From a bacterium (GTDB lineage: Bacteria > Actinomycetota > CALGFH01): 64,000 nucleotides of DNA. The translations under genes and the position numbers were made by a program. Location: assembly GCA_046727955.1 (NCBI GenBank), contig JBKPDO010000010.1:5823-69822 (forward strand), in the 5' to 3' direction. The notes under the pieces were generated by a model, which was not told the DNA's origin, did no database searches, and saw nothing but the letters and a program-made list of their open reading frames with translations. Positions within the stretch are counted from its first letter, which is position 1. Each line of letters begins with the position of its first letter. Positions 22,917 to 56,992 of this stretch are shown piece after piece.

Positions 22917-23042
22917 CCACCGCGGCCCCGCTCAAGAGCCCACAGCCCCGCTCAAGAGCCGGGCCCGGGTCCTTGGGTCCGGACTGGGGCCGGACCGTTG
23001 CACGATCGCAACCTCCGCGGCCGATCTTGACGGATGTAGCGG

Positions 23043-24020: not shown

Positions 24021-24039
24021 CTCGCCGAGACCGGCCGTC

Positions 24040-24290
24040 CCACACCGACCATGGCACAGGCGCTCTTGGGGGGCCGCCGGAGGGGTCCGGGGAACCCCGA
24101 GGGCCGGAGGGGTCCGGGGAACCCCAAGGGGGTGCCCCGGTGGGTCGGGCCCCGGTGGGTCGGGTCCCAGTGGGAAGGGGGGAGCGAGCTCCCCGTACGG
24201 CACCACGGAACGATCTTGACCTTGGGGGGCGTGGGGGGAGCGAGCTCCCCCCACATGGATAGACCTGCCCCGGGCGCCGAAGCGCGCTGT
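24040..24290. repeat. Composite dispersed repeat (REP/MITE-like). It has module A (ccgaccatggcacaggcgctcttgggggg), a 27-bp tandem (ggccggaggggtccggggaaccccgag x2), and a module B hairpin (gtggggggagcgagctccccccacatggatagacctgccc).
   Basis: It sits between convergent genes (GerMN-domain gene ends at 24020, birA ends at 24290). Near-identical modules recur at 56993-57295 and 59421-59460. Confidence 0.75.
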
Positions 24291-25123
24291 CAGACTTCTG
24301 AGCTCACGTGCTCGACGTCAGCGGTAGCTATCTCGACCCTGGCGCCGATGTCGGTGAGGATCACCAGGTTCCCCGAGGCGGTGAGGTCGACTGCCGTGCC
24401 GACCACCGGGTCGCCGCTGAGGCGCTCGGCCCGCACCCGCCGGCCCAGCGTCTCCAGCCGGTCGCGGTAGGCGAGCAGGAGCGGCGTGGTCGGCCCCGCG
24501 CCGAGGTCGCCGTAGCCGGCCATGAAGCGCCGGCCCCACGCGCCGAGCAACTCGGCCCGGTCGACTCGACGGCCGGCCGCCAGCCCCACGCTGGTCGCCC
24601 GTCCAGCCAGCTCGGCGGGGAAGTCCATGGCCTCGCCCACGTTGACGCCCATCCCGAGCACCACCCATGGGAGCCGGCCGCCAGCCTGACCTCCGGCGCC
24701 GGCCTCGGCGAGCAGCCCGGCCGCCTTGCGCCCGTCCAGCAGCAGGTCGTTCGGCCACTTGAGGCCGACCGTCGCGCGGCTGCCCGCGGCGGCCAGGACC
24801 TGGTGGACGGTGTCGGCCAGGGCCACACCGGCGAGTGAGACGATCAGCCACGCCTGCCCGATGGCGAGCGGCGGGCGCAGCACCACCGAGACCAGCAGCG
24901 CGCTGCCCGGCGGCGCCACCCAGGCGCGCCCGAGGCGGCCCCTGCCCGCGGTCTGCTCATCCGCGACCACGGTCGCACCCTCCGGCACACCGGCCTCGGC
25001 CAGCTCCGCGGCCCGCGCCATCGTAGTCGGCAGCCTGCTGGCGATCTCCAGCGGGCTGAAGAACGGCGGCAGGGCGCGCCGCAGCGCCTCCCCGTACCCG
25101 CCGGGATCACCCATGTCCCCCAA
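24290..25123 (-). CDS. birA: Biotin--[acetyl-CoA-carboxylase] ligase
   Basis: GRGRLGRAW and KWPNDLL motifs. About 277 aa, with no N-terminal HTH domain evident. Confidence 0.8.
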   Translation of the reverse strand: MGDMGDPGGYGEALRRALPPFFSPLEIASRLPTTMARAAELAEAGVPEGATVVADEQTAGRGRLGRAWVAPPGSALLVSVVLRPPLAIGQAWLIVSLAGVALADTVHQVLAAAGSRATVGLKWPNDLLLDGRKAAGLLAEAGAGGQAGGRLPWVVLGMGVNVGEAMDFPAELAGRATSVGLAAGRRVDRAELLGAWGRRFMAGYGDLGAGPTTPLLLAYRDRLETLGRRVRAERLSGDPVVGTAVDLTASGNLVILTDIGARVEIATADVEHVSSEV

Positions 25124-25415
25124 GCCTCCTGTACGCCACTGTCTGCAAGCCTTGAGCCCCGCCGAGGCGGCCGCCGCTCGACGGGAAGCCTATATGGCTC
25201 TCTACAATGCCTAGTGCCGACCCCGGACAACGGTTGCCCGGTCGGCGCCGGGCTCCCGTGGTCACCATCGTGCGCCATTCGGATCACCTGGCGAGGCGCC
25301 GGCCGGGCAGACGTTTGGAGGGGAGGCACAATTGTCCAGCAGGACTTGGCGAGGCGATCGTCCCGGACGAGGCCCGGGCGGGAGGTTCAGGGTGGCGCCA
25401 CTACAGCCGAAGCCG

Positions 25416-26960
25416 ATGAAGGAACGGATCGACGAGCTCCGCAAGCGCAAGGAGCAGGCGCTGCACGCCGGCTCCAAGCAGGCGGTCGAGACCCAGCACG
25501 CCAAGGGCAAGCTGACCGCCCGCGAGCGGATCGACGCGCTGCTCGACCCTGGCTCGTTCGTCGAGACCGACATGCTGGCGGTGCACCGCGCCACCGCCTT
25601 CGGGATGGACGAGCGGCGTATCCCCACCGACGGCGTGGTGACCGGCTACGGCAGCATCGACGGGCGCAGGGTGTGCGTGTTCAGCCAGGACTTCACCGTG
25701 TTCGGCGGGTCGCTCGGCGAGGTCATGGCGGAGAAGATCTGCAAGCTCCAGGACCTGGCGATGCGGATGGGCGTGCCGTGCATCGGCATCAACGACTCCG
25801 GCGGCGCCCGCATTCAGGAGGGCGTGGTGGCGCTCTCCGGTTACGCCGAGATCTTCTGGCGCAACGTGCAGGCGTCCGGGGTGGTGCCGCAGCTCTCGCT
25901 GATCATGGGGCCCTCGGCGGGCGGGGCGGTCTACTCACCCGCCATCACCGACTTCGTCTTCATGGTCAAGGAGACCTCCTACATGTTCATCACCGGCCCT
26001 GACGTGGTGAAGGCCGTGACCGGTGAGGACGTGACCTTCGAGGAGCTCGGTGGGGCGATGACCCACGCGGTGAAGTCCGGCACCGCGCACTTCGCCGCCG
26101 AGGACGAGGACGAGTGCTTCGACCTGGTCCGCCAGCTCCTGTCGTACCTGCCGCCCAACAACATGGAGGACCCACCGCGCCGCCAGCCGACCGACGACCC
26201 GCGCCGCGAGGACCCGACCCTTCTGGACCTGGTGCCGGACAACCCCAACCAGCCCTACGACATGCGCGAGGTCATCAAGCGCGCGGTCGACAACGGCGAG
26301 TTCACCGAGGTCCTGCAGGCGCACGCCGAGTCGATCGTGGTCGGGTTCGCCCGCCTGAACGGCCGCCCGGTCGGGGTGGTCGGCAACCAGCCGCTGCACC
26401 TGGCCGGCGTGCTCGACATCAACGCCTCGGTCAAGGGCGCCCGCTTCGTCCGCTTCTGCGACGCCTTCAACCTCCCGATCGTCAGCTTCGTTGACGTGCC
26501 AGGCTTCATGCCGGGCACCAACCAGGAGTGGGGCGGGATCATCCGGCACGGCGCCAAGCTGCTGTACGCCTACGCCGAGGCCACGGTCCCGCTGCTCACC
26601 GTGATCACGCGCAAGGCGTACGGCGGCGCCTACGACGTCATGTCGTCCAAGCCGCTGCGCGCCGACGTGAACCTCGCCTGGCCCAGCGCGGAGATCGCGG
26701 TCATGGGCCCGCAGGCGGCGGTGAACATCATCTTCCGCAGGGAGATCGAGGCGGCGGCGGATCCCGGCACTCGCCGCGACGACCTGGTGGCCGAGTACAC
26801 CGACCGCTTCGCCAACCCCTACATCGCGGCGGAGCGCGGCTACCTCGACGACGTGATCGAGCCCCAGACGACGCGCCCGCGGCTGATCCAGGCGCTGGAG
26901 ATGTGCGTCACCAAACGCGAGACCCGCCCGCCCCGCAAGCACGGAAACATACCGCTGTGA
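25416..26960 (+). CDS. Acyl-CoA carboxylase carboxyltransferase beta subunit (propionyl-CoA carboxylase beta / AccD5-like)
   Basis: Near full-length collinearity with the mycobacterial AccD5 pattern ([33 protein letters not shown]...HGNIPL). ORF-track start 25332; ATG at 25416 preferred. Confidence 0.85.
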
Positions 26961-27274
26961 ACAGCGATAACGGCTTGGAGTCCGCCTTCGGCGGACGATC
27001 ATCTGACTCCGACCGCCAGACTCGGCGGTCGGCCGCCGACCGCAGAATTCTGCGGTCGGCGGGCGGGCTGCGTTTCGAGCTACTCAAGGGCACGCCGGAG
27101 GGGGACGAGGCCGAGGTGCTCGGGGCGGCGATCGACCGGCTGGTCGCCTGGGACCGCGGCCAGGAGTCGAGCGGCTGGGTCACCAGCGTGCGGCCCGGCA
27201 TCGGCCTGCGCGCCTGGAGCCCAGGCAGCCGCTGGAGCCAGAGCCTGCGCTCGTCATGGGGCGGGGATCGTTGA
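26957..27274 (+). CDS. Putative acyl-CoA carboxylase epsilon subunit (AccE-like). Start uncertain; a GTG overlaps the accD stop.
   Basis: Position between the accD-like and accA-like genes. [21 protein letters not shown] and a W/R/G-rich tail resemble actinobacterial AccE/PccE peptides. Confidence 0.4.
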
Positions 27275-27336
27275 GCCAGTGAGCTACCCTTTGCGACAGC
27301 CCGGCTCGCCGGCACCGCGCATCGAGGAGGCACCCA

Positions 27337-29097
<1,761 letters not shown>

Positions 29098-39049: not shown

Positions 39050-40462
39050 TCAGTAGCGGTAGCCGGCCTGGACCCGGCCGGCGAGGAGGCGGGCGCACTC
39101 CTGGATCGAGCCCGCGAAGGAAGGATAGATCTGGAACGCCTGCGCGAGCTGGTTCGCGGTGAGCCGGTCGAAGCAGGCGACCGACGCCGGGGCGATCAGG
39201 TCAGAAGCGTAGCCGGCCACCACCGCACCGCCCACGATCGTGCCGGACCCCGGGCGCGCCAGCAGCTTCACGAAGCCGTCCTGCTGGTTGGCCATCTTGG
39301 CGCGAGAGTTGCTCGACAGCGGTAGCTTCTCGGTCACGACCTCGATGTTGGCCTTGGCCGCGCGCTGCTCCGACAGGCCGACCGTGGCGATCTGCGGGTC
39401 GGTGAAGACGGTCTGGGCCACCGCGTCCCAGCGCAATGGGGCCACCGCCTGGCCGAGCAGGTGCCACATGGCGATGCGGCCCTGCATCGCCGCCACCGAC
39501 GCGAGCATCTGCCTGCCGGTCACGTCCCCGGCGGCATAGATGTTCGGCACGGTGGTGCGGCTCACGCCGTCGACCATCACCCCCCCGCTGTCGGCGTTCA
39601 CGCGCACACCGACCTCTTCCAGGCCGAGCCCGGAGGTCTGGGGGACCTGGCCGATGGTGAGCAGGACGTGCGTCCCCTCCACCGTGCCGCCGTCCTCGAG
39701 GTGGACCACGCCGTGGTCGCCGCTGCGCTCCACGCTGGCCGCCCTGGAGCTCTTGACCGTCTCCAGGCCGCGCCGCCGGAAGACCTCCTCGATGACCATG
39801 GCGGCGTCCTCGTCCTCGGAGGGCAGGACGCGGTCCCGGCTCACCACGAAGGTGACCTTGGAGCCAAAGCGGAGGAAGGCGGTGGCGTACTCCGCTCCGG
39901 TGGCGCCCGCTCCGATGACCACCAGGCGCTCGGGGACCTCCTTGAGGTTGTAGACGTCCTTGCTGGACAGGATCACCTCGCCGTCGGTGGGCGCGGTGTG
40001 GAGCCTGCGCGGGGCCGAGCCGGTGGCGATCAGGATCGCGTCGCAGGTCAGCCGCTCGGCCAGGCGGGTGTCGACGCGCACCTCGACCGTGTGGGGGTCG
40101 GCTATGTAGCCCCTGCCCTTCACGACGCGGGCACCCTCGGCGACCACCCGCTTGCGGATGTCCTCGGACTGGGCGTGGGCCAGGTCCCGGACGCGCTGCA
40201 TGATGGTGGGCAGGTCGACCTCGTAGGTCGGCACGGAGCGGTTCGGCATCCCCTGGAAGTGGACGCCGAGCGCCGGCGCGGTCTCCAGGATCGAGAACGC
40301 CTGCGCCGAGCTGAGCAGCGTCTTCGACGGCACGCAGTCCCACAGGACGGTGTTGCCCCCGAGCCCCTCGTCGCTGACGATGGTGACGTCCGCGCCGAGC
40401 TCGGCCGCGACCAGCGCGGCCTCGTAGCCGCCCGGCCCACCCCCGATGATCACAATCTTCAT
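39050..40462 (-). CDS. Pyridine nucleotide-disulfide oxidoreductase, LpdA-like (single-cysteine variant)
   Basis: MKIVIIGGGPGGYEAA..GGNTVLWDCVPSK has one Cys where dihydrolipoamide dehydrogenases have the CxxxxC pair. C-terminal dimerisation domain present. Confidence 0.75.
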   Translation of the reverse strand: MKIVIIGGGPGGYEAALVAAELGADVTIVSDEGLGGNTVLWDCVPSKTLLSSAQAFSILETAPALGVHFQGMPNRSVPTYEVDLPTIMQRVRDLAHAQSEDIRKRVVAEGARVVKGRGYIADPHTVEVRVDTRLAERLTCDAILIATGSAPRRLHTAPTDGEVILSSKDVYNLKEVPERLVVIGAGATGAEYATAFLRFGSKVTFVVSRDRVLPSEDEDAAMVIEEVFRRRGLETVKSSRAASVERSGDHGVVHLEDGGTVEGTHVLLTIGQVPQTSGLGLEEVGVRVNADSGGVMVDGVSRTTVPNIYAAGDVTGRQMLASVAAMQGRIAMWHLLGQAVAPLRWDAVAQTVFTDPQIATVGLSEQRAAKANIEVVTEKLPLSSNSRAKMANQQDGFVKLLARPGSGTIVGGAVVAGYASDLIAPASVACFDRLTANQLAQAFQIYPSFAGSIQECARLLAGRVQAGYRY

Positions 40463-40526
40463 GACCCGATAGTACTCACCTCAGGGGTCCCGCTCCCATC
40501 CGGCGGCGCCAAGCCCTCAATCGGCG

Positions 40527-40694
40527 TCAGGTGATTCTTCGCAGCGTGAGCACCAGCGGGACGAACACCCACAGGGCGAGGCCGAGGCCGATGAGATTCA
40601 GGCGACCCGACCAGCTCGAGCGGATGCCGAAGGCGGCCACGAGGAAGCAGAGGAACGCCGCCAGGTAGATGACGAACTGGAGCGTGTCAGACAT
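40527..40694 (-). CDS. Small membrane protein (about 55 aa, two TM helices). Start uncertain.
   Basis: MSDTLQFVIYLAAFLCFLVAAFGI...LIGLGLALWVFVPLVLTL. Confidence 0.35.
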   Translation of the reverse strand: MSDTLQFVIYLAAFLCFLVAAFGIRSSWSGRLNLIGLGLALWVFVPLVLTLRRIT

Positions 40695-40741
40695 AGAAGG
40701 CAGTTCCTTCAGACGGGGGTCGTCGGCGCGACCCATCCAAG

Positions 40742-40789
40742 ACCCGGATGGATAGTTCTTACCGCCTCAAACCATTGAGGAAACGCTCA
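40742..40789 (-). terminator. Two short GC hairpins (ccatcc-N7-ggatgg; cctcaa-N4-ttgagg) downstream of the mutase gene; no clear U-tract
   Basis: Inverted repeats read directly. Confidence 0.3.
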
Positions 40790-40828
40790 CCGTCCGCCGC
40801 GATCGCCCGCTCATCCCGCTCATCCCGC

Positions 40829-42424
40829 TCACAGCGTGTCCGGCGGCCGGTAGACGCCGAAGACTTCGCGCAGCGCGTCGCACACCTCGCCGACCGTGGC
40901 CATGCGCCGCAGCGCCTCGCGCATCGGCACGAGCAGGTTGTCCCGACCACGAGCGGCGTCGCGCAGGGCCTCCAGGGCGTCGCGCACCGCCTGGGCGTCC
41001 CGCTGCGCGCGCACCTCGGCCAGCGACTTGGCCTGCGCCTCCGCGATGGCGGGGTCGAGCCGCAGCAGGCTCACCGGCTCTTCCTCGCCCTCGGTCCAGC
41101 GGTTGACGCCCACCACCACGCTGTCGCCTGACTCGACCGCCCGGAGCTGCTCGTAGGCAGAACGCTCGATCTGCTCCTTCTGGAAGCCGCGCTCGATCGC
41201 TGCCACCGCCCCGCCCAGCCCGTCGACCTCGGCGATGAGCGCCCGCGCCCGCGCCTCGACCTCGTCGGTGAGGCGCTCGATGAAGTACGACCCGGCGAGT
41301 GGGTCGACCGTGTCGGTGACGCCCGTCTCGCTGGCGAGCACCTGCTGGGTGCGCAGCGCCAGCCGCGCGGCCGACTCGCTCGGCAGGGCCAGCGCCTCGT
41401 CGTAGGCGTTGGTGTGCAGCGACTGGGTGCCCCCGAGCGCCGCGGCGAGAGCCTGGTACGCCACCCGGACCACATTGTTGAGCGGCTGCTGGGCGGTGAG
41501 CTGCACGCCTGCCGTCTGCGTATGGAAACGCAGCATGCGCGAGCGCGGGTCCTTGGCGCCGAAACGGCTGGCCATGATCTCAGCCCAGGTGCGCCGGGCG
41601 GCGCGGAACTTGGCCACCTCCTCCAGCAGGGTCGTGCGGGCGACGAAGAAGAACGACAGCCGCGGCGCGAACGCGTCGACGTCGAGCCCGGCCTCCGACG
41701 CGGCCTGCACGTAGGCGACGGCATTGGAGAGGGTGAAGGCCACTTCCTGCACCGCGGTCGCGCCTGCCTCGGCCATGTGGTAGCCGGAGATCGAGATGGT
41801 GTTGAAGCGCGGCAGGTGGCGGGCGCAGTAGGCGAACAGGTCGGTGGCGATGCGCAGGCTCGCCCTGGGCGGGTAGATGTAGGTGCCGCGGGCGATGTAC
41901 TCCTTGAGAACGTCGTTCTGGACGGTGCCGGACAGCTCGGCTGGGTCGACCCCCTGCTCCTCCCCCACCAGCTGGTACAGCAGCAGCAGGACGGCCGCGG
42001 GGGCGTTGATGGTCATCGAGGTGGAGACCTTGCCGAGCGGGATCCCGTCCAGCAGCCTGCGCATGTCGGCCAGGGAGTCGATAGCCACGCCAACCTTGCC
42101 CACCTCGGCCGCGGCCATGGGATGGTCGGAGTCGTAGCCCATCTGGGTGGGCAGGTCGAACGCCACCGAAAGGCCGGTCTGGCCGTGCGCGAGCAGGTAG
42201 CGGAAGCGTGCGTTGGTCTCGGCCGCCGAGCCGAAGCCGGCGTACTGGCGCATGGTCCAGGGCCGGCCCCGGTACATGGTCGGGTAGATCCCGCGCGTGA
42301 AGGGATCGCGCCCGGGCTCGCCCAGAGCCCGCTCTGGGTCGAAGCCCGCCAGGTCCTCGGGTCCGTACAGGATCTCGACCGGGATGCCCGACTCGGTGCG
42401 GCGCTCGTCGTCTGTAGTGCCCAT
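40829..42424 (-). CDS. Methylmalonyl-CoA mutase family large (substrate-binding) subunit, 531 aa, lacking the C-terminal B12-binding domain
   Basis: Mutase TIM-barrel motifs ([22 protein letters not shown]..). The protein ends before any DxHxxG B12 motif. The ORF-track N-terminal extension (to 43234) is an artefact. Confidence 0.75.
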
Positions 42425-42471
42425 CGTCCAGCCTCCTGTCGCAGGAGGCCAGGGTAAGGCACTACCTCGCT

Positions 42472-43317
42472 TCAGGCTGGGAGCGCGCGGGAGCCCGCGG
42501 CGACGCGGCGCAGCGCGTACCAGACGTCCGCCGCCTCGGGGCGCTCGGCCGGCTCCTTGGCCAGCAACCGCTCGATCACCGGGGCGAGCGGGCCGAGGTG
42601 GTCCGCCGGTCGCGGTGGGTCGTTGACGATGGCGTTCACCACGTCCAGGTGCACCTTGGCCGACTTGAACGGCGGCTCGCCCTCGACCGCGAAGTACAGC
42701 GTCGCCCCGAGCGCCCACAGGTCCGTGGGCGGCCCGACCTGGAGCCCCTTGATCTGCTCGGGCGCCATGAACGCCGGCGAGCCGACCACCACCCCGGTCG
42801 CGGTCAGCTCGGGGTCGCCGGTGAGGGACGCGGTGCCGAAGTCGGTGAGCTTGGTGGTGCCGTCCTCGCGCACTAGCACGTTGCTGGGCTTGACGTCCCG
42901 GTGAACGATGCCGGCCCGGTGCGCCGCCTCCAGGGTCGCCAGCAGCCGCAGGCCGATCGCCGCGGCCCGGCGCGGGTCGAGCGGGCCGCGCTCGCCGACG
43001 AGCTGGTCGAGGTTGGGCGCCTCCACCAGCTCCATGACGATGTAGTCCTGGCCCGAGTCCTGGACCACGTCGAAGAGGATGACGGCGCCCGGATGGCTCA
43101 GGCGCGCGGCGGCGCGCGCCTCGCGGATCACCCGCGCCCGCAGCGCGGTCCGCTGCTCCTTCCGGACCGCCGGGGGCAGCTCGACCTCTTTGATTGCGAC
43201 CGGACGGCCCAGCAGGGTGTCCTCGGCCCGCCATACCACGCCCACGCCGCCCTCACCGAGCTGCGGCCCGAGCTCGTAACGGCCGGCGATCGTGCGTCCA
43301 GCGACATCCTGTGCCAT
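42472..43317 (-). CDS. Ser/Thr protein kinase, catalytic domain only (281 aa, no TM)
   Basis: [31 protein letters not shown] all present. Internal ATG by frame arithmetic. Confidence 0.75.
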
Positions 43318-43415
43318 GCCGCCGCACCTTATCAGCCGAGCGCGGTGAAGGCGCGCTCGAACTGTGCAGCGATGCCCCTCCGGCAGGCACGGGAGCCCTC
43401 CGCCGTCCCGGCTCG

Positions 43416-45005
43416 CTATCCCGGCGGCGCGAAGGAGCCGAGGGCTGTCTGCAGGATGGCCTGGGCGACGCCCCAGTCGGTCTCGTGCGAGAACACGCTG
43501 ATGGCCAGCCAGCGGCCGGGGCCGCTCTGGCCCGGCGGGGTGTTGGCGCCGAGCTCGATCGCGTGGAAGGGCTGCTGGTCGTCGCCGAGGTAGGTGAACT
43601 CCAGCACGGCGCCGGGACGGCCCTGGAGGACCGTCGGCTCGACCCGGACCTGCTGGTAGCTGCCCTCGTGGAGGCCCGCGTGCAGCTGCGAGGACTGCTG
43701 CTCGGCGGCGACCGGGTCGCCGGCGGGCCCGTCCTGCCACTGGACCCGCAGGAAGGTCGGCAGGGAGCGGTCGTGGAACTCGGTGGTATGGTCGTCCTGC
43801 TGCACGACCTCCCAGCTCGCCGGGTAGGCGATGCGGTAGCCGACGCGCTGGTCGGTGAATACGGTCCACCCGGCCGGCAGCGCCGCGGCCGTCGGCGGCG
43901 GCGTGGTGGTGGACGTGCTGGTCGAGGTCGAGGTCGAGGTGCTCGGAGTAGTCGCGACGGCGCGGTCACGCGCCCGCTGCTCCGCGACGGAGCCGGCCGG
44001 GTTGCCGATCACCGCCACGATCACCACGAACGACAGCAGCGCGAGCAGCACCGAGACGCCGGCGACCAGCACCCCCCGCCGCCGCGGGTCCAGCAGCCAG
44101 TCGACCGCCTCGCCCCGTGCCGGCAGCCAGGCCGGCAGCCAGGCCGGACGGCCCCGAGCGCGGGCGGCCTGGCCGGCGGCGCCCGCCGCCGGGACGGGCG
44201 TCAGCAGGGCGGTGCCCTCGTCGAGGTCCTCGAGCTGCCTCCGGACGCTGGCGGCCGAGGGGCGCATAGCGGGCGTCCGTGTGAGCAGCGCCGCGAGCAC
44301 CGGGCCCAGCGGGCCGGCATGCTCGCAGGGCCGCGGCTCCTGGTACAGCACCGCATCGGCGGGCACTGTCCGCGCCTGCTCACCGAAGGGGGGCTGGCCC
44401 TCCACGGCGGTGTACATGGTGGCGCCGAGCGCCCACAGGTCCGCCGCCGCTCCGGCAGGCTCCCCACGAGCCTGCTCGGGCGCTGGAACGGCGATCGGCC
44501 GCGCGGGTGGCACCACCGCCGCCAGCCCGAGGCCTGCCAGGCGGGCAGCGCCGTCCGGGGTCACCAGCACGCTCGCCGGCTGCAGGTCCAGGTGGGCAAA
44601 GCCGGCGCGATGGACCGCCTCCAGCACCCCGAGCACGTCGAGGCCGATACGCGCCACCCGGCGCGGCGGCAGGTGGTCGTGGCGCTCGAGGAGCTCGTCC
44701 AGGGGAAGCGCCTGGACCAGCTCGGTGACCACGTAGAGGCGGTCCCCGTCGAGCAGGACGTCGTGCAGCGTGAGCGCGCCCGGGTGGTCGATGCCGGCCG
44801 CCACGCGGGCACCATGGACGATCCGGGACCAGCGCGCGGCGCGCTCGGCCTCGGACTCGGCTGGCGACTCGATCTCCTCGACCGCGACGACGCCGCCGGT
44901 GACCAGGTCGGTGGCGCGCCAGACGGTACCGGCGCGGCCCCGGCGCAGGGTCGCCTGCAGGACGTAGCGGTTGGCGACGAGCCGTTCGGGGGAAGCCTGC
45001 TCCAT
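43416..45005 (-). CDS. Membrane-anchored pseudokinase: degenerate kinase-like domain, one TM helix, Ser/Thr/Pro linker with (ST)n, and an extracytoplasmic C-terminal domain
   Basis: VAVEEI replaces VAIK (no catalytic Lys). HLDLQPASV replaces HRDLKPxN. No DFG (LAGLG). TM VLLALLSFVVIVAVI. Confidence 0.65.
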   Translation of the reverse strand: MEQASPERLVANRYVLQATLRRGRAGTVWRATDLVTGGVVAVEEIESPAESEAERAARWSRIVHGARVAAGIDHPGALTLHDVLLDGDRLYVVTELVQALPLDELLERHDHLPPRRVARIGLDVLGVLEAVHRAGFAHLDLQPASVLVTPDGAARLAGLGLAAVVPPARPIAVPAPEQARGEPAGAAADLWALGATMYTAVEGQPPFGEQARTVPADAVLYQEPRPCEHAGPLGPVLAALLTRTPAMRPSAASVRRQLEDLDEGTALLTPVPAAGAAGQAARARGRPAWLPAWLPARGEAVDWLLDPRRRGVLVAGVSVLLALLSFVVIVAVIGNPAGSVAEQRARDRAVATTPSTSTSTSTSTSTTTPPPTAAALPAGWTVFTDQRVGYRIAYPASWEVVQQDDHTTEFHDRSLPTFLRVQWQDGPAGDPVAAEQQSSQLHAGLHEGSYQQVRVEPTVLQGRPGAVLEFTYLGDDQQPFHAIELGANTPPGQSGPGRWLAISVFSHETDWGVAQAILQTALGSFAPPG

Positions 45006-45096
45006 GGTCGCGGCAGTACTCTACGACAGTCAGGTCCGCAGCGGTCGAGATCCACCCGCTCCGCTGAGGGCTGCGGAGGGGGTGGCGAGGGGATCG

Positions 45097-45342
45097 CTAC
45101 TCGTCCGGGCGGGCGCGGCGGCGGCGGGTTGGGGGTGGCTCGCCGACCGCGCGCTGCCACAGGATGGCGACCAGCTTGCGAGCGAGCATCACGGCGAGCG
45201 CCGATGCCACGGCGAACGCGACCTGCTTGGCGATCCTGCGAGCCTCGTCCGGGGCCCGCTCGGAGAGCTTGGCCACCTTCTCCTCCATGCGTCTGCGGGT
45301 CAGCTCGATCTCTCGGGCGGTCGCCGCCGCGGTCTCACCCAC
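45097..45342 (-). CDS. DUF3618 domain protein. Start uncertain (GTG at 45342 overlaps the holin gene; alternative ATG at 45285).
   Basis: TAREIELTRRRMEEKVAKLSE motif plus one C-terminal TM. Conserved pairing with holin-X in Actinobacteria. Confidence 0.4.
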   Translation of the reverse strand: MGETAAATAREIELTRRRMEEKVAKLSERAPDEARRIAKQVAFAVASALAVMLARKLVAILWQRAVGEPPPTRRRRARPDE

Positions 45343-45776
45343 CTGATCTCCTCTCTGAGCTCGGTCGCGGTCTCTCTCAGCTCGGCCCTGGCCTGCGCGG
45401 GCGTCACCCTCGACCTGGCCAGGCGTCGGGCTCCCAGAAACCCGAGGAGGCCGGCCAGCAGCACCACCGCGCCGCCGACGATCAGTGGACCGAGCCATGC
45501 CGGCCCGTAGATCGCCCGTGCCGCCGAGGCGAGCAGGAACCCGATCCCGTAGAGCACCAGGACCCCCGCCACCGCCAGCAGGCTGGCTGCTCTGGCGCCG
45601 GACACCAGCCCCTCGGTCATCTCCTGCCTGGCCAGCAGGACCTCTTGGCGCACCAGTGTGGTGGCGTCGTCGGCGAGGCCCCTGAGCAGCTCGCCGGTGG
45701 ACGGCTCGCCCGCCACCGCTGGTCCCTGGGGCGAAACGACCCCGTCGCCCCCAGGGGACACTTGCTCGCTTGTCAC
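45300..45776 (-). CDS. Phage-holin-family protein (putative actinobacterial holin-X, holin superfamily III)
   Basis: LVRQEVLLARQEMTEGL followed by two TM helices. GTG start at 45776 with a GGGGGAG RBS. Confidence 0.55.
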   Translation of the reverse strand: MTSEQVSPGGDGVVSPQGPAVAGEPSTGELLRGLADDATTLVRQEVLLARQEMTEGLVSGARAASLLAVAGVLVLYGIGFLLASAARAIYGPAWLGPLIVGGAVVLLAGLLGFLGARRLARSRVTPAQARAELRETATELREEIRWVRPRRRPPERSS

Positions 45777-45844
45777 AATGCTCCCCCTGCTCCGCTGATC
45801 GTCTCGTGATCCTGCCTGATCAGGTTCCCCTCGACAACAGTCTT

Positions 45845-46795
45845 TTACCGCGCGGGCGACCAGGCGGGTCCGAGCACCTCCAGCAGCCGTGTCAGCGCGC
45901 GCCGAGTGGTCGGCGACAGCGGCAGCCCCGCCAGCTCCCACAGCGGGACCCATTCCAGCTGGGAATGCTCGCCTGGGTCGCGGTTGCTCGTCTGCCCCCG
46001 CCAGGCCGTCGCCAGGTAGAACGCATCGGCCCGCTCACCATCGTGGAAGCAGCCCAGCGGCGCGGCAGCGAGCGGCTCCACGTCCGCCTCCTCGCGCGCC
46101 TCGCGGACCAGCGCCTCCAGCAGCGACTCCCCCGGCTCCCGCTTGCCGCCAGGCGCGTCCCATACCCCTGGGTAGCGGCGCTCCGGCCGCCGCGTGCGCC
46201 GGCCGAGCAGGACCCGCGAGCCGTCGAAGAGGAACACGGCCGCGCTCACCGCCTCGGCCAGCGGCACCTCGCGGACCACCCCGACCCCGCCGACCGCCGC
46301 CTGGTGCAGCACCTGCCACTCGCCGCGCTCGTCCTCCTCGGTGAGCGTGACCTCTGGCAGCGGGAACACGGCATGGAAGCCCGCCAGCTCCCGCGCGGCC
46401 GCCTCCAGCTCGGCGGGCGGCCTGTCCTGCGTCACGGTCACGTGTGGATAGAACGGGAAGGCGCGCTGGTCCAGCGGCGGCGCCCGCAGCGCCGCCTCGA
46501 GCGCACGCAACGTCGGCTCGCCCTCCGTCACCACCAGGAAGACCACCGCGCTCTGCGGCAGGAACGTCGCCGCGCCGCGCAGCTCGATCACGCCGGGAAG
46601 CACCCTGGCCGCCGCGCGGTCGACCAGGGCGATCGCCGCGTCCCGGGCAGCGGCCGCCACCGTCTGCGGCGGCACCAGCGTCAGGTGAGGCGGGATCAGG
46701 TCCCTGGCCGGGTCGCGCAGCGCCCGCCGCCAGGCCTGCACGTGCGCGGCCAGCGGCTCAGGCAGCAGCACGATCACCCCGAGAGCGCCGGTCAT
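45845..46795 (-). CDS. Fusion protein: N-terminal 2H phosphoesterase (LigT/2',5'-RNA ligase-like, two H-x-T/S-x motifs HLTL, HVTV) plus C-terminal NUDIX hydrolase
   Basis: Nudix box GKREPGESLLEALVREAREEADVE. 2H motifs about 80 aa apart. ATG by frame arithmetic. Confidence 0.65.
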   Translation of the reverse strand: MTGALGVIVLLPEPLAAHVQAWRRALRDPARDLIPPHLTLVPPQTVAAAARDAAIALVDRAAARVLPGVIELRGAATFLPQSAVVFLVVTEGEPTLRALEAALRAPPLDQRAFPFYPHVTVTQDRPPAELEAAARELAGFHAVFPLPEVTLTEEDERGEWQVLHQAAVGGVGVVREVPLAEAVSAAVFLFDGSRVLLGRRTRRPERRYPGVWDAPGGKREPGESLLEALVREAREEADVEPLAAAPLGCFHDGERADAFYLATAWRGQTSNRDPGEHSQLEWVPLWELAGLPLSPTTRRALTRLLEVLGPAWSPAR

Positions 46796-46938
46796 GTACC
46801 CGGCGCGGCATGCAGCGCCAGACCTTCGTGCGACGCTGGACCTTGCGCGCCGTCCCCGTTGACCACTCACTCACCTCACGAAGGGATACTTGACCGGTGC
46901 TCTTCAGGACGGCGGTGGCCGGCGGGGCCACGCCTCGC

Positions 46939-50072: not shown

Positions 50073-52922
<2,850 letters not shown>

Positions 52923-53032
52923 ATCGCGTCCCTCCAGCCGTTCCTCTCACGCGTAGCATGCTCCCAGAGGGCCAAGGGTACCCACCCGCGCCGGGCCACG
53001 GCACCCACGATAATCGAGGGGGAAGCACCACC

Positions 53033-53656
53033 ATGAGCAAGCGCGGCGTGCAGCGCGGCTCGAGCAAGCGGCCGACTGGCTCGGCGAGAAAGGCCGCGAT
53101 GCGGCGCCGGCGGGAGCGGCGCCGGCGCGCGGCGATCATCACTGGGGTGACTCTGGTGGTGGCCGGCGCGGTGGTCGCCGCGGTGCTGCTCAGCCGCGGC
53201 TCCGGCGGGGCCACGGCGGGCTACGGCAAGGTCAAGACCTTCACCGTCTCCAGCCGCGTCCACACCACGGCGCCGGTGAGCTATCCGCAGAACCCGCCGG
53301 TCGGAGGTCCGCACAACCCGGTCTGGCAGAACTGCGGCTACTATGACCAGCCGGTGCGCAACGAGAACGCGGTCCACTCGATGGAGCACGGCACGGTGTG
53401 GATCACCTACCGGCCCGGGCTCCCTGCTCCAGGTCGCCTAGCGCTCGCCGGCCTCGCCCGCGCTCAGACCTACATGCTGGTCAGCCCCTACCCCGGCCTG
53501 CCGGCGCCGGTGGTCGCCTCTGCCTGGGGCGTGCAGGAGTGGTTCCACACCGCCACGGACCCCCAGCTGAACGACTTCATTGCCAAGTACCGCCAGGGGC
53601 CGCAGACGCCCGAGCCAGGCTCGCCGTGCACTGGCGGCACCGGAACGCCGAAGTGA
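53033..53656 (+). CDS. DUF3105 domain protein with an N-terminal basic region and one TM
   Basis: VHSMEHGTVWITYRP DUF3105 signature. RBS GAGGGGGA upstream of the ATG. Confidence 0.75.
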   Translation: MSKRGVQRGSSKRPTGSARKAAMRRRRERRRRAAIITGVTLVVAGAVVAAVLLSRGSGGATAGYGKVKTFTVSSRVHTTAPVSYPQNPPVGGPHNPVWQNCGYYDQPVRNENAVHSMEHGTVWITYRPGLPAPGRLALAGLARAQTYMLVSPYPGLPAPVVASAWGVQEWFHTATDPQLNDFIAKYRQGPQTPEPGSPCTGGTGTPK

Positions 53657-53670
53657 CGCCGAAGTGACGC

Positions 53671-54603
53671 TCATACGCTGAGCTTGGCCAGGTCGGCCTG
53701 CTTGGCGCGGACCGCCGCGGCCGCCTGGCGCAGGTCGGCCAACTCGCCCTCGGCAAGCGGCAGCTCGACGATCTCCTTCACCCCGCCGCGGCCGAGCCGC
53801 ACCGGTACGCCCAGGTAGACGCCGTCGATGCCGTACTGGCCGGTCACCCAGGCGCACACCGGCACGAGCGCGCCCGAGTCGGCCAGTACCGCCTGGACCA
53901 TCGCGGTGGCGGCGCTGGACGGGGCGTAGTAGGCCGAGCCAGTCTTCAGCAGCGCGACGATCTCGCCGCCGCCGTCGCGGGTACGCTGCACGATGCGCTC
54001 GACGGTGCCGGCGTCGGCCAGTTCGAGCAGCGGCTTGCCGTCCACCTTGACCAGGCTCGGCACCGGCACCATGGTGTCGCCGTGCGAGCCGAGTGTCATA
54101 GCCTCGACCTTGCTGGGGCTGGTGCTCAGCTCCTCGGCGACGAAGTGCTTGAAGCGAGCGGTGTCGAGCATGCCCGCCTGGCCGACCACCCGCTCCTTCG
54201 GGAAGCCGGAGACCTGGGCCGCCAGGGCGGTCATCTCGTCGAGCGGGTTGGACACCACGATGAGGACCGCGCCGGGCGAGCCCTCTACCAGCCTGCTGGT
54301 GACTTCACCGACGATCTTGGCATTGGTCTCGAGCAGGTCCATCCGGCTCATGCCGGGCTTTCGGGGCACGCCGGCGGTGATCACGCACACGTCCGAGCCG
54401 GCGGTCTCCTCGTAGCCGTTGCTGCCGACGATGCGGGTCTCGAAGCCCTCGATCGAGCGGGACTGGGCCATGTCGAGCGCCAGCCCCTGCGGCAGGCCCT
54501 CGATGATGTCGGTCATCACCACCTCGTCAGCGAGGCCCTTCTCGGCGATCCGCTGCACCGTGGTGGAGCCGTATTTGCCAGCTCCAACAACCGTGACCTT
54601 CAT
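53671..54603 (-). CDS. mdh: Malate dehydrogenase (LDH-like MDH)
   Basis: MKVTVVGAGKYG..ITAGVPRKPGMSRMDL.. Confidence 0.85.
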   Translation of the reverse strand: MKVTVVGAGKYGSTTVQRIAEKGLADEVVMTDIIEGLPQGLALDMAQSRSIEGFETRIVGSNGYEETAGSDVCVITAGVPRKPGMSRMDLLETNAKIVGEVTSRLVEGSPGAVLIVVSNPLDEMTALAAQVSGFPKERVVGQAGMLDTARFKHFVAEELSTSPSKVEAMTLGSHGDTMVPVPSLVKVDGKPLLELADAGTVERIVQRTRDGGGEIVALLKTGSAYYAPSSAATAMVQAVLADSGALVPVCAWVTGQYGIDGVYLGVPVRLGRGGVKEIVELPLAEGELADLRQAAAAVRAKQADLAKLSV

Positions 54604-54605
54604 GC

Positions 54606-55694
54606 CTAGACCCCCTGCTCGATCCCGGTGATGACCGCGTCGGCGACCTGGCTGGTGCCGACCGCGGTGGGGTCGTCGCGGTGCGGCTTCATGTCGTAGG
54701 TGACGCTGCGGCCCTCGGCGATGACCGCGGCGATGGCGCGCTCGAGCCGGTCGGCGGCGTCGCCCTCACCCAGGTGCCTGAGCATCAGCACGCCGGAGAA
54801 CATCATCGCCATCGGGTTGACCTTGTTCTGCCCCCTGTACTTGGGGGCCGAGCCGTGGGTGGCCTCGAACACCGCCGCCTGGTCGCCGAGGTTGGCGCCG
54901 GGCGCCACGCCGAGGCCCCCGACCAGCCCGGCGCCCAGGTCGGAGAGGATGTCGCCGTAGAGGTTCGGCAGCAGCAGCACGTCGAAGTTCTCCGGCTTCT
55001 GCACCAGCTGCATGCACATGTTGTCGACCAGGTACTCGTCGTACTCGATGTCGGGGTACTGTTTGGCGACCTCGCGGCTCACCGCGTAGAAGAGCCCGTC
55101 GGTGTGCTTCATGATGTTCGCCTTGGTCACCGCCGTGACCCTCTTGCGCCCGTACGCGCGGGCGTACTCGAAGGCGAACCTGGCGATGCGCCGCGTGCCG
55201 GTGATGGAGATCGGCTTGATCGAGATGCCGGAGTCCTCGCGGATGCGCTTGTCCTGCAGGCCGTTGAGGAACTCGATGACCTGCCTGGCCTGGGCGGTGC
55301 CCTCCTCGAACTCGATGCCCGCGTACAGGTCCTCGTGATTCTCGCGCACGATCACCAGGTCGACGTTCTCGTGGCGCGAGCGGACGCCCTTGTACCACTT
55401 GCACGGCCGCAGGCATGCGTACAGGTCGAGCTCCTTGCGCAGTGCGACGTTGACGCTGCGGAAGCCGGTGCCGATCGGCGTGGTCAGGGGGCCCTTGATC
55501 GCCACCCGGTTGGCGCGGATGGACTCGAGCACCGGCTGGGGCAGCGGCGTCCCGTACTGCTCGATGACCTCGGCGCCAGCCTCCTGGACGTCCCAGTCGA
55601 ACTGGACACCGGTCGCCTCGAGCACGCGTCGCGTCGCCTCGGACAGCTCGGGACCTACACCGTCACCAGGGATGAAGGTGACTCGGTGGACCAT
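54606..55694 (-). CDS. icd: Isocitrate dehydrogenase (isocitrate/isopropylmalate dehydrogenase family, short homodimeric type)
   Basis: [31 protein letters not shown] and [10 protein letters not shown] motifs. The TCA context supports IDH over LeuB. Confidence 0.75.
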
Positions 55695-55864
55695 CTCGGA
55701 AGCTCCTCTCGTAGCTCCTCAGCTCTTGAGCGAGCCAAGAGTACCGCCGGCGCGAGCCGCGCAGGTCCCTGGACGGGTCAGCCGAGGTAGTCGGAGGATG
55801 TACTGGTCGGGCGGGTTCCCTACGATGTTGCGAGAGGCGCCCTCGAGAGACCGGAGGAACCGAG

Positions 55865-56992
55865 ATGGCGGATGGCAAGGGAAAAGGACTCGAGGGCGTG
55901 GTCGCGGCTCAGACCAGCATCTCCGACATCGACGGCCAGCAGGGTAAGCTTTTCTACGCTGGCTATGACATCGCGGACCTGGCCGAGCACTCCACCTTCG
56001 AGGAGACCGTCTACCTGCTCCACCACCTCGAGCTGCCGACCCGGGAGCAGCTCGACGGGGTGAAGGAGGTGCTGCGGGCGGGCCAGCGCCTCGACCCGAT
56101 GCTGGTCCGGCTCATCTCGGCGCTCGGCGACAACACCAGTCCCATGACGGTGCTGCGCACGGTGATCTCGGCGTCCGCCGCCCTGGACGCAGAGCTGGAC
56201 GACGATTCGTCCGAGGCGAACCTCCGCAAGTCGTACCGGCTGGTTGCGCTGACGCCGCAGGTCGTGGCCGCCCTCCACCGGCTGCGCACTGGCGGCCAGG
56301 CGGTCGAGCCGCGCGACGACCTGTCACTGGCCGGCAACTTCCTCTACTCGCTCACCGGCAAGGAGCCGGACGTCCAGATCGCTCGCGACTTCGACGTCTG
56401 CCTGGTGCTGTACGCCGACCACACCATGAACGCCTCGACCTTTGCCGGGCGGGTCGCGGCGGCTACCCTGGCGGACATCTACGCATCCGTCACCGCCGCC
56501 ATCGCCACGCTCCAGGGCCCTCTGCACGGCGGCGCCATCGAGCAGGTCCGCCACATGCTCGACGAGATCGGCACGCCCGACCGGGCCGCCGACTACGTGC
56601 GCGACCGGCTCGCCCGCAAGCAGAAGGTGATGGGCTTCGGCCATCGCGTCTACAAGACGTGGGACCCGCGGGCGACGATCCTGCGCGCGATGTCCCAGCG
56701 CCTCGGCCAGCAGCTCGGCGACACCCACTGGTTCGAGATCTCCGATCGCATCCAGGAGACCGTGCGGGCCGAGAAGGGCCTGTACCCGAACGTGGACTTC
56801 TACACCGCCAGCGTGTACTCGGCGCTCGGCATCCCGCCCGACCTGTACACCACCCTGTTCGCCACGGCGCGCATGGCCGGCTGGACCGCCCACATCCGCG
56901 AGCAGTACGCCGACAACCGCCTGATCCGGCCCGACTCCGAGTACATAGGCCCGCCGCCGCGCCATTGGATCGACATCGACCAACGCGGGTAA
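55865..56992 (+). CDS. Citrate synthase (small type; could be 2-methylcitrate synthase)
   Basis: GFGHRVYKTWDPRA signature; 375 aa. Confidence 0.85.
   Translation: MADGKGKGLEGVVAAQTSISDIDGQQGKLFYAGYDIADLAEHSTFEETVYLLHHLELPTREQLDGVKEVLRAGQRLDPMLVRLISALGDNTSPMTVLRTVISASAALDAELDDDSSEANLRKSYRLVALTPQVVAALHRLRTGGQAVEPRDDLSLAGNFLYSLTGKEPDVQIARDFDVCLVLYADHTMNASTFAGRVAAATLADIYASVTAAIATLQGPLHGGAIEQVRHMLDEIGTPDRAADYVRDRLARKQKVMGFGHRVYKTWDPRATILRAMSQRLGQQLGDTHWFEISDRIQETVRAEKGLYPNVDFYTASVYSALGIPPDLYTTLFATARMAGWTAHIREQYADNRLIRPDSEYIGPPPRHWIDIDQRG

Follow-up and report, generated by a model that had tools for sequence, protein, structure and literature searches.

To our knowledge, catalogues of bacterial Hanks-type pseudokinases are recent, a function is known only for MviN and EssB/YukC, and no case has been demonstrated in which one of them regulates a partner kinase. 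In eukaryotes, pairs such as HER3/HER2, STRADalpha/LKB1 and KSR/RAF exemplify a dead paralogue that may serve as an allosteric or scaffolding partner. The described bacterial families are ActPs1, ActPs2, ActPs3/MviN, DYD, DLHK, GLW and CP1 (bioRxiv 10.1101/2025.01.12.632604; PMC12599244). Within ActPs3/MviN, the MviN pseudokinase is phosphorylated by PknB and recruits FhaA (PMC12599244).

In the window (the whole 64,000-nucleotide stretch of DNA that was analyzed), a receptor-like pseudokinase gene (PSK) is followed by the gene of a kinase-domain-only protein (K3) and that of an acyl-CoA mutase subunit, with same-strand gaps of 98 bp (PSK/K3) and 47 bp (K3/mutase) (Table 1). Both ORFs lie where the initial annotation had placed them, and their start codons are supported by the conservation of the N-termini in relatives. 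Because 99.98% identical DNA is present in five further independent assemblies (L093-L097, with the sequence checked for L093-L096), the arrangement of PSK and K3 is not an assembly artefact. The surroundings are largely as described before: the holin-X neighbor upstream is borne out by a match to PF07332, whereas the DUF3618 protein said to pair with it stayed below threshold (E 0.011), and the downstream gene, described as a stand-alone mutase subunit, encodes the N-terminal domain of a methylmalonyl-CoA mutase but no B12 domain. Over its whole length the window gave no Rfam matches, and a scan of positions 40400-46000 for sigma-70 promoters and terminators gave nothing usable in this 72% G+C DNA.

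Table 1. Features of the PSK-K3 locus (positions in the window; aa, residues of PSK).
Feature	Position	Strand	Evidence
PSK, 529-aa receptor-like pseudokinase gene	43416..45005	-	ORF; Pfam Pkinase 3.4e-24; family alignment with invariant M1; AF2 full-length mean pLDDT 81.4
PSK kinase-like domain, aa 1-266	44208..45005	-	PknA alignment; motif table; AF2 pLDDT ~85-97; Foldseek
PSK juxtamembrane motif G-T-A-L-L, aa 264-268	44202..44216	-	31/39 family members vs 5.4 expected (shuffles)
PSK transmembrane helix, aa 307-333, preceded by RRR	44007..44087	-	Kyte-Doolittle 3.03 (aa 313-333); AF2 helix 307-333
PSK disordered extracytoplasmic (ST)n/Pro linker, aa 334-375	43881..44006	-	Translation; AF2 pLDDT <50 for aa 335-372
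PSK ectodomain, PsbP/Mog1 fold, aa 376-529	43419..43880	-	
98-bp spacer, scar of deleted K2	43318..43415	-	Nucleotide identity to K2 3' ends of relatives
K3, 281-aa kinase-domain-only Hanks Ser/Thr kinase	42472..43317	-	Pfam Pkinase 5.8e-48; PknE, PknA/B E 1e-38 to 1e-41
Acyl-CoA mutase large-subunit N-terminal domain gene	40829..42424	-	PF01642 1.2e-221; TIGR00641; synteny

PSK has a Hanks-type fold, as seen from its match to the Pfam Pkinase profile PF00069 (86.1 bits, cut-off 31.7) and from the bilobal AF2 model, for which PknA and PknB are the best Foldseek matches (target TM-score 0.75-0.81). In the alignment with M. tuberculosis PknA, VAVK is replaced by VAVE, HRDVKPGN by HLDLQPAS and DFG by GLG. 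The initial annotation was right about the beta3 lysine, the altered HRDLKPxN and the absent DFG, but the HRD aspartate is retained (HLD); an additional loss is that of the alphaC glutamate, which has become glycine. With Glu, Gly, the retained Asp, Ser (for the catalytic-loop Asn), Gly and a Gly-rich loop reading RRGRAG at the six canonical positions, PSK does not qualify as catalytically competent. Relative to K3, its activation segment lacks about 11 residues, and neither Ser nor Thr occurs in it. The alignment to Hanks kinases that had been proposed as a check confirmed the losses in PSK and showed intact motifs in K3. A compensating WNK-like lysine, named beforehand as an observation that would speak against a dead kinase, was looked for and ruled out, since none of the 529 residues of PSK is a lysine; the family likewise has no conserved N-lobe lysine. 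Compared with 36 other genes (1.87% Lys), a lysine-free composition has P ~5e-5. One more gene of the window also lacks lysine, and for that reason we attach little weight to the composition as such.

The losses are shared by the family. Among 38 members, the lysine is replaced by Glu and the DFG aspartate by Gly in all, the HRD arginine by Leu in 37, and the HRD aspartate is kept in all. The atlas of bacterial Ser/Thr kinases defines a pseudokinase by the family-wide absence of at least one of the VAIK lysine, the HRD aspartate and the DFG aspartate, and in the PSK family both the first and the last of these are missing throughout (38/38). The full pattern recurs in four further representatives (P0250, P0275, P0284, P0305), and the partial sequence P0262 shows it for HLD and G-x-G only. 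By its sequence, PSK is confirmed as a genuine receptor-like pseudokinase.

The residues that are kept could nevertheless form a new site, made up of the HRD aspartate, the beta3 glutamate and the arginines of the former Gly-loop, for catalysis of an unusual kind or for the binding of a nucleotide or other ligand, comparable to the metal-independent ATP binding of DLHK and ULK4 or to the chemistries of SelO and SidJ. D140, E43 and H138 are invariant, R21 is conserved in at least 90% of the members, the APE motif is retained, and pseudokinases with an HRD aspartate may bind ATP unconventionally (PMC12599244). However, an acidic residue occupies the place of the phosphate-binding lysine, the metal-binding aspartate and the alphaC glutamate are gone, the catalytic-loop Asn is missing from the window protein (and is Ser or His in most members), and the window protein offers no lysine anywhere. 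We consider such an activity very unlikely.

K3 was described as a complete, apparently active Hanks kinase of 281 aa without a transmembrane (TM) segment, and this holds: all catalytic motifs are intact (GEGGVG, VAIK, the alphaC Glu and the activation-loop Thr residues; 164 bits against Pfam Pkinase), a hydrophobicity scan found neither a TM segment nor another hydrophobic stretch in the protein, and its activity is putative. All 49 orthologues are canonical, activation-loop Thr residues included. The gene is present in every context examined and is the most constrained of the array (dN/dS 0.16-0.19, with 0.13-0.17 for the housekeeping mutase). The longest K3 orthologues, of 541 aa, include the TM helix and ectodomain that more distant orthologues still have; others, of 342-488 aa, stop at what was the juxtamembrane polybasic segment, and the shortest form has 281 aa. 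We read this series as progressive truncation, with K3 as the shortened third paralogue of a set of receptor kinases.

The second paralogue, K2, is found in most relatives. It is a complete, active receptor kinase with the same type of ectodomain as PSK, and the order PSK-K2-K3-mutase is seen in L081, L082, L086 (with a GerE/LuxR-type gene between K3 and the mutase), L087/88, L089, L091 and the contig of P0024. L085 shows PSK-K2-K3 up to the end of the contig, and the tandem is partially visible in L001-L003; the three-kinase array is counted in at least nine related contigs. The array lies between a TrpRS/LigT-NUDIX/holin-X block and the acyl-CoA mutase gene in an uncultured clade of Actinomycetes, and wherever the contig of a relative is long enough, the mutase gene is found on the downstream side of K3. 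K2 is missing only in the window, with its identical copies L093-L097, and in L083/84. L092, a candidate PSK-less variant, was not considered further, since the N-terminus of its K2 is foreign sequence and the assembly is probably chimeric.

The spacer between PSK and K3 retains a trace of K2. Read in frame 0, it contains GIAAQFERAFTALG followed by two stop codons, which corresponds to the K2 C-terminus. It matches the 3'-terminal 30-34 nt of K2 from L085, L086 and L087 at 28/30 to 32/34 positions, and the 86-codon K2 remnant of L083 at 55/60 nt; local alignments to K2 score 50-95, compared to a mean of 20 and a maximum of 32 for shuffled sequences. K2 has thus left a tail of 86 codons in L083 and about 15 recognizable C-terminal codons in the window. 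Three tandem paralogues, PSK-K2-K3, are the ancestral as well as the commonest state, from which the window has lost K2 by deletion, so that its PSK and K3 are the remnant of a tandemly duplicated receptor kinase array.

This bears on the view of the locus as a split receptor. The conserved pseudokinase, the canonical soluble kinase and their linkage all stand, but a two-part design is not what the locus reflects. In the ancestral array an active receptor kinase is placed in between; PSK and K3 are best described as a natural pseudokinase-kinase pair by descent. The co-conservation that the initial annotation asked to see was found, with PSK and K3 linked in every related context examined and the PSK-(K2)-K3 order and short gaps kept where PSK identity is ~50% and K3 identity 67%. 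The short same-strand gaps (28-98 bp), together with an sdh operon that in many relatives runs divergently from PSK on its upstream side, suggest a putative single transcription unit beginning at PSK; in the five-kinase cluster of Streptomyces coelicolor, genes 93-173 bp apart are transcribed separately (PMC4416010).

The PSK family is monophyletic in a neighbor-joining tree, small, and found in metagenomes and metagenome-assembled genomes (MAGs) only. A scan of genome contigs retrieved mostly ordinary Streptomyces kinases (28-40% identity); its genuine family members numbered only three, all of them MAG loci. Two ectodomain-only proteins (P0044, P0045) look like 5'-truncated gene calls. Since this lineage has lost K2 and shortened K3 step by step, PSK could be a decaying leftover on the way to the same loss, perhaps along with the entire array; its dN/dS lies above that of its neighbors, and the PSK of L003, which was left out of the analysis, looks frameshifted. 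In contrast, the PSK ORF is unbroken and recurs without change in five other assemblies, 38 clusters spanning ~45-95% identity share its fixed substitutions, both the ectodomain and the kinase-like domain are confidently folded in the AF2 models, and dN/dS values (kinase-like domain, 0.40-0.53; ectodomain, 0.26-0.46; in comparisons that include L083, also without K2) are well below 1. On dN/dS and conservation a decaying pseudogene was rejected, and decay as an account of the array is largely refuted and has very little probability left. These values only suggest that PSK stays constrained without K2, as K2 may have been lost either before or after the window and L083 split.

Outside the kinase-like domain, PSK has the TM helix, (ST)n/Pro linker and extracytoplasmic domain ascribed to it earlier, as judged from hydrophobicity, the AF2 model and the translation. 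The ectodomain shows a structural match to PsbP-like proteins (Pfam PF01789) and has a PsbP/Mog1 fold. In the otherwise disordered juxtamembrane region, the family shares the consensus [A/S/P/G]-T-x-[V/L/A]-[L/I]; T-x-x-[L/I] is missing in 8 of the 39 members compared, and a Thr motif of this type is also present in K2 and K3 of L082. This motif might be a docking site for which the threonine would be phosphorylated. Against a docking role, no FHA-domain gene was seen among the window genes scanned.

In view of the conserved linkage and the conserved juxtamembrane T-x-x-L motif, we tentatively favor a role in which PSK, anchored in the membrane and itself non-catalytic, would serve the adjacent active paralogues as a sensor and docking subunit. 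The ectodomain would read an envelope cue, and the dead kinase domain together with the juxtamembrane Thr-x-x-Leu would form a platform that is bound, and probably phosphorylated, by K3 and, where present, by K2. Docking would place K3, the catalytic output, at the membrane, and in this genome PSK would be its sole remaining membrane or sensor partner.

The mechanism put forward initially is allosteric recruitment or activation of the soluble kinase by the dead-kinase sensor. Spelled out, a ligand bound by the ectodomain would lead to a heterodimer of the dead domain with K3 and thereby switch K3 on, with PSK as a dedicated allosteric activator after the manner of HER3/HER2, STRAD/LKB1 or the PknB back-to-back dimer. 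In PknB the dimer interface involves Arg10, Leu33 and Asp76, and all three have equivalents in K2 and K3. The numbering follows the PknB sequence and was checked against K40, E59, D138 and D156. PSK keeps the Arg10 and Asp76 equivalents in 38/38 members, its kinase-like fold is predicted to be intact, its linkage to K3 is strict, and both PknB and the MviN pseudokinase are known to form back-to-back dimers (PMC13434768; PMC12599244). At the position of Leu33, however, PSK has Asp (17 members), Thr (10), Ala (4), Gly (4), Ser (2) or Glu (1). L33D is a dimer-breaking mutation in PknB and StkP (PMC13434768), and the lost contact argues against classical back-to-back activation; moreover, the two-gene state is secondary, with K2 still in between in most relatives. 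We regard dedicated allosteric activation as unlikely.

A role unrelated to the neighboring kinases would fit the evolutionary rate of PSK, which is two to three times that of K3. PSK would then be a structural or sensing protein of the envelope or membrane in which the kinase fold is re-used, as in EssB/YukC of type VII secretion, and its adjacency to K3 a trace of tandem duplication. PsbP/LpqN/DcrB-type domains have diverse envelope roles, membrane pseudokinases with non-signaling roles are known (PMC9600267; PMC12599244), and PSK is intact where K2 is lost. Nevertheless, gene order and short gaps have outlasted considerable divergence, and the ancestral juxtamembrane Thr motif has been kept, as in the K2 and K3 mentioned above, which makes full independence improbable. 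We also hold it rather improbable that a ligand-gated receptor pseudokinase, PSK, directly controls a separate cytosolic K3, as a bacterial counterpart of eukaryotic receptor-pseudokinase/cytoplasmic-kinase signaling; the genome without K2 would represent the minimal version of such a system, with two proteins and a possible connection to the genes of TCA and propionate metabolism around it.

Most relatives carry K2 and this genome lacks it, which provides a deletion series made by nature. Should PSK modulate K3, the two-gene version would offer a compact test system for bacterial pseudokinase-kinase coupling; if it does not, the locus is a clean case of the divergence of tandem receptor kinases through pseudokinase formation, sensor loss and deletion. 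In either case the family adds a Lys-to-Glu/HLD/G-x-G signature, a PsbP-fold ectodomain and a fixed first position in a paralogous kinase array.

Like the described families, PSK is a conserved, lineage-specific kinase-fold family with fixed catalytic losses. It is actinobacterial, derives from an active actinobacterial kinase clade and, as in ActPs2, ActPs3 and DYD, has a TM segment C-terminal to the domain. It differs from the seven in the replacement of Lys by Glu (not Arg), the retained HRD aspartate, the change of DFG to G-x-G, and the absence both of large indels and of partner domains of the PQQ, MviN or helicase type; for none of them has an ectodomain of PsbP fold or a first-gene position in a kinase array been described. 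ActPs1 has lost all three residues, frequently has the G-helix deleted and carries PQQ, whereas in PSK the HRD aspartate is invariant, PQQ is absent and the C-lobe helices are present in the AF2 model. In ActPs2, Lys is changed to Arg, the HRD aspartate to Asn and DFG is deleted, with insertions of ~32 aa (beta3-alphaC) and ~250 aa (activation loop); PSK has Glu, the aspartate, G-x-G and a shortened activation segment. The ActPs3/MviN type, with all three residues lost, an activation-loop deletion of ~40 residues and often a link to the MviN/MurJ flippase, contrasts with the kept aspartate, the ~11-residue shortening relative to K3 and the lack of a MurJ domain in PSK. DYD combines Lys-to-Arg with DYD for DFG, where PSK has VAVE and G-[LFIV]-G. 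Only DLHK resembles PSK in pattern (HRD aspartate kept, Lys and DFG lost), but it is proteobacterial, lacks a TM segment, carries helicase/DNA2 domains and keeps the Asn, in contrast to the actinobacterial PSK with its TM helix, PsbP ectodomain and mostly Ser or His. The PSK family appears to fit none of the seven families and to be previously unclassified.

As a gene pair, PSK-K3 resembles PknG-GlnX-GlnH (PMC6069109), in which a soluble Hanks kinase gene lies beside that of a separate membrane sensor in a central-metabolism setting. There, however, the sensor consists of a four-helix-bundle membrane protein and a solute-binding lipoprotein rather than a pseudokinase, and PknG has rubredoxin and TPR domains that are absent from K3. 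As an array, the locus resembles SCO4775-4779 of S. coelicolor (pkaH, SCO4776, pkaD, pkaI, pkaJ), a tandem Hanks kinase array with ~100 bp spacers whose members act together and are dosage-sensitive (PMC4416010). All five of these are described as kinases, no pseudokinase being reported among them, and the genomic neighborhood is different; as the genome-contig search showed no synteny of the PSK array with Streptomyces loci, homology to that cluster is not established. The likeness to the eukaryotic pairs is an analogy only, as PSK and its paralogues arose by a separate, lineage-specific duplication and lack, in the case of PSK, the residue expected at the interface of the bacterial N-lobe dimer. 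The proposed role has its nearest parallel in M. tuberculosis MviN (Rv3910), likewise an actinobacterial membrane-anchored pseudokinase, on which an active Hanks kinase docks in a phospho-dependent manner and whose extracytoplasmic part is thought to bind envelope material. MviN differs in its fusion to a MurJ-like flippase, the loss of all three catalytic residues and a PknB encoded elsewhere. Our best guess, by analogy, is that PSK would act in a manner closer to the MviN pseudokinase scaffold than to classical back-to-back activation.

Three consecutive genes on the minus strand of the window (72% G+C) encode a receptor-like pseudokinase (PSK), a soluble Hanks kinase (K3) and an acyl-CoA-mutase N-terminal-domain protein. 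The two-gene observation of the initial annotation is borne out: PSK is a pseudokinase with a TM helix, linker and ectodomain, and K3 has all canonical kinase motifs, with no hydrophobic segment found in its sequence. Alignment with M. tuberculosis PknA reproduced the motif losses reported for PSK (VAVK to VAVE, HRDVKPGN to HLDLQPAS, DFG to GLG). The claimed loss of catalytic essentials holds for the Lys and the DFG and extends to the alphaC Glu, which is Gly, but the HRD aspartate is retained, as is the APE; the Gly-rich loop reads RRGRAG. From GLG to APE the activation segment of PSK has 14 residues, none of them Ser/Thr, against 23 in K3, TATG included. A conventional kinase role is ruled out for PSK. 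Rescue by a WNK-like lysine elsewhere, which the initial annotation had named as a refutation, is excluded because none of the 529 residues of PSK is a lysine (Arg, 42; close relatives, 0-1 Lys); the mean Lys content of 36 other window genes is 1.87%, giving P of about 5e-5. A second lysine-free gene lies at 21165-22100, and the absence of lysine from PSK might bear on Lys-directed modification, e.g. pupylation. The AF2 model of full-length PSK (mean pLDDT 81.4) confirmed the extracytoplasmic domain, though at a smaller size than the approximately 180 aa proposed.

Features of the window and predicted domains of PSK
Feature	Position	Strand	Remarks
677-aa ORF	7901-9934	+	GC3 0.90, coding-like; adjoins glycosyltransferase genes
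SpoIIE/PP2C-type phosphatase	13902-15467	-	521 aa; about 28 kb from kinases
Acyl-CoA-mutase N-terminal-domain gene	40829-42424	-	531 aa
K3	42472-43317	-	281-aa ORF; Pfam protein-kinase domain E 5.8e-48
PSK	43416-45005	-	529-aa ORF; Pfam protein-kinase domain E 3.4e-24
PSK kinase fold	aa 6-266		AF2, confident
PSK juxtamembrane stretch	aa 267-297		AF2, disordered
PSK helix	aa 307-333		AF2; hydrophobic core aa 313-333, Kyte-Doolittle 3.03
PSK (ST)n/Pro linker	aa 335-372		AF2, disordered
PSK ectodomain			AF2, compact; about 154 aa
Holin-X (PF07332) gene and 81-aa small ORF	45097-45342 and 45300-45776	-	about 40 nt overlap
LigT-like 2',5'-RNA-ligase/phosphoesterase domain fused to NUDIX	45845-46870	-	directly downstream of TrpRS in all relatives

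With a k-mer-indexed protein search, about 45 clusters (90% identity level; 95% to about 43% identity) were obtained in which the complete domain layout and the degenerate motifs of PSK are common to all; the matches after these are ordinary active kinases. When 1.84 billion representatives were searched exhaustively with a profile, only about eight 50%-identity clusters bore the x-x-V-E / HLD / G-x-G signature, with scores of 878, 718 and 661 bits followed by 460 (partial sequence) and 410 (active kinases). All members stem from metagenomes or from MAGs, under the label Actinomycetes or Actinomycetota. Among 38 members, aligned with PknB numbering, K40 is Glu and D156 is Gly without exception, D138 is retained in all 38, R137 is Leu in 37/38, E59 is Gly or Ala in 32/38, and N143 is replaced by His, Ser or Cys or kept as Asn. 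In a neighbour-joining tree PSK forms a single long-branched clade, beside K3, its paralogue K2 and further active kinases that bear the same ectodomain. Compared pairwise with four relatives, PSK has a dN/dS of 0.40-0.53 in the kinase-like domain and of 0.26-0.46 in the ectodomain; K3 has 0.16-0.19 and the mutase 0.13-0.17. Judged by these substitution patterns, selection maintains PSK, a conserved pseudokinase family and not a wreck; plain decay, ranked last among the rival explanations, is very improbable. The PSK of one MAG locus (L003:5646-7426) looks frameshifted between the N-lobe and the remainder. Two further degenerate kinase groups among the search matches (P0088, P0093, P0101, P0102, P0109, P0116; P0315, P0350, P0367), one with VVVR...HRDVKPAN...GFG (Lys to Arg, DFG to GFG) and one with VAVR...HRDV(R/Q)PSN...DFG, may be additional small pseudokinase lineages.

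In relatives the gene order is TrpRS, LigT/NUDIX, holin-X, small ORF, in many cases a divergent sdhCDAB, then PSK, K2, K3, mutase, a 55-aa ORF, Pyr_redox and amine oxidase. The triple array was seen in L081, L082, L085, L086, L087/88, L089, L091 and the P0024 contig; L001-L003 show part of it. K2, of 560-690 aa, is a canonical kinase that has a TM helix as well as a paralogous ectodomain of the PsbP type. It is absent only from the window and an 88%-identical relative (L083/L084), where an 86-codon ORF in L083 still encodes the C-terminal part of the K2 ectodomain. In the window the 98-bp PSK-K3 spacer reads in frame ...GIAAQFERAFTALG followed by two stops; it matches the K2 3' ends of relatives at 28/30 to 32/34 nt, with local alignment scores of 50-95 (shuffle mean 20, maximum 32). 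The arrangement is a real genotype: five further, independent assemblies carry it base for base. The pair is very probably a remnant of the PSK-K2-K3 triple. Of the split receptor proposed initially, the conserved pseudokinase is real, but the pairing arose secondarily by reduction of an array with three paralogues and is not a design. A K2 with a foreign N-terminus beside unrelated upstream genes (L092:4991-6955) probably reflects chimeric assembly of a metagenome across a conserved kinase segment.

K3 is the most constrained array member and is never lost. It carries a TM helix and ectodomain in L082 (541 aa), the most distant context, and similarly in orthologues of about 65% identity; in most relatives it has 342-488 aa and a conserved C-terminus (...GGxWLRRRWRRSG), and in the window sub-clade 281-303 aa, without this motif. 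Most orthologues (L081:10816-11907, L089:7001-8368, L091:7001-8314, P0126-P0169) have an acidic low-complexity tail, then GGxW(L/R)RRR(W/L/R)RRSG(G/S). The motif resembles the former polybasic juxtamembrane segment, kept as a new C-terminus, and might anchor the protein peripherally to the membrane.

Same-strand gaps in the array are 28-98 bp, the active paralogues always follow PSK, and PSK heads the array where sdh is divergent upstream. In many relatives sdhCDAB lies directly upstream (L081:3627-6862, L085:3587-6861, L087:111-3350); it is absent there from the window (45006-45096), L083, L089 and the P0024 contig, and the 64-kb window has no sdh genes anywhere. The kinase genes sit within a central-metabolism block (19597-29097, 40829-42424, 50073-56992) with two carboxyltransferases and a biotin carboxylase (propionyl/acyl-CoA carboxylase type), aconitase, malate dehydrogenase, isocitrate dehydrogenase and citrate synthase. 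The mutase gene is downstream of K3 in all relatives with a sufficiently long contig, usually directly adjacent; no B12-binding domain is encoded nearby. Upstream, the reported holin-X/DUF3618 pair was upheld for holin-X, but for the 81-aa ORF the DUF4235 and DUF3618 matches both stayed below threshold; the mechanical ORF list made both ORFs too long. The 677-aa ORF had no Pfam match at E <= 1e-4.

PSK would act without catalysis, as a sensor and a subunit on which the neighbouring kinases dock. The initial annotation instead had PSK allosterically recruiting or activating K3. Of the PknB back-to-back dimer residues, the Arg10 and Asp76 equivalents are retained (38/38), but the central Leu33, kept by K2 and K3, is Asp, Thr, Ala, Gly, Ser or Glu in PSK. 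Since L33D breaks the activating PknB dimer (PMC13434768), classical N-lobe allostery is doubtful, and the activator model, first among the rivals, is unlikely. In the disordered juxtamembrane stretch only one element is conserved, [A/S/P/G]-T-x-[V/L/A]-[L/I], present in 31/39 PSK members (5.4 expected by chance) and in the window as G-T265-A-L-L. FHA domains typically bind pThr-x-x-(Ile/Leu/Val). The M. tuberculosis pseudokinase MviN is phosphorylated by PknB and serves as a platform for FhaA (PMC12599244). Among the window genes scanned no FHA-domain gene was seen, and the SpoIIE/PP2C-type protein was the sole Ser/Thr phosphatase candidate noticed. Together, the Leu33 replacement and the conserved Thr motif favour docking. 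PSK-K3 coupling is plausible, and we tentatively regard PSK as the scaffold, and the sole membrane and sensor partner left here, with K3 as catalytic output. A kinase-independent envelope role ranks second among the rivals and is likewise unlikely. Third, and in our view improbable, is that the invariant Asp140 and Glu43, with the conserved Arg21, support an unconventional enzymatic activity or the binding of a ligand.

The locus would offer a useful, compact test case in a pseudokinase field with almost no functional data, although its hosts are uncultured. The closest gene organisation is the tandem kinase cluster SCO4775-4779 of S. coelicolor, where spacers of about 100 bp accompany separate transcription (PMC4416010), which urges caution in assuming an operon for PSK-K3. 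By mechanism, the closest are MviN-PknB-FhaA and the PknG-GlnX-GlnH module, one operon in which a soluble kinase is under a separately encoded membrane sensor (PMC6069109). Published work defines seven families of bacterial pseudokinases, ActPs1-3, GLW, CP1, DYD and DLHK (bioRxiv 10.1101/2025.01.12.632604; PMC12599244). PSK fits the general pseudokinase definition but none of the seven in its particulars: the HRD Asp, which it retains, sets it apart from ActPs1-3, GLW and CP1, it has Glu for Lys where ActPs2 and DYD have Arg, and it is without the insertions, deletions and partner domains of the seven. DLHK shares the pattern of a kept Asp with lost Lys and DFG, but its members are soluble proteins of proteobacteria, linked to helicase domains. 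PSK represents an unclassified family of actinobacterial, receptor-like pseudokinases with a fixed place in a tandem array.
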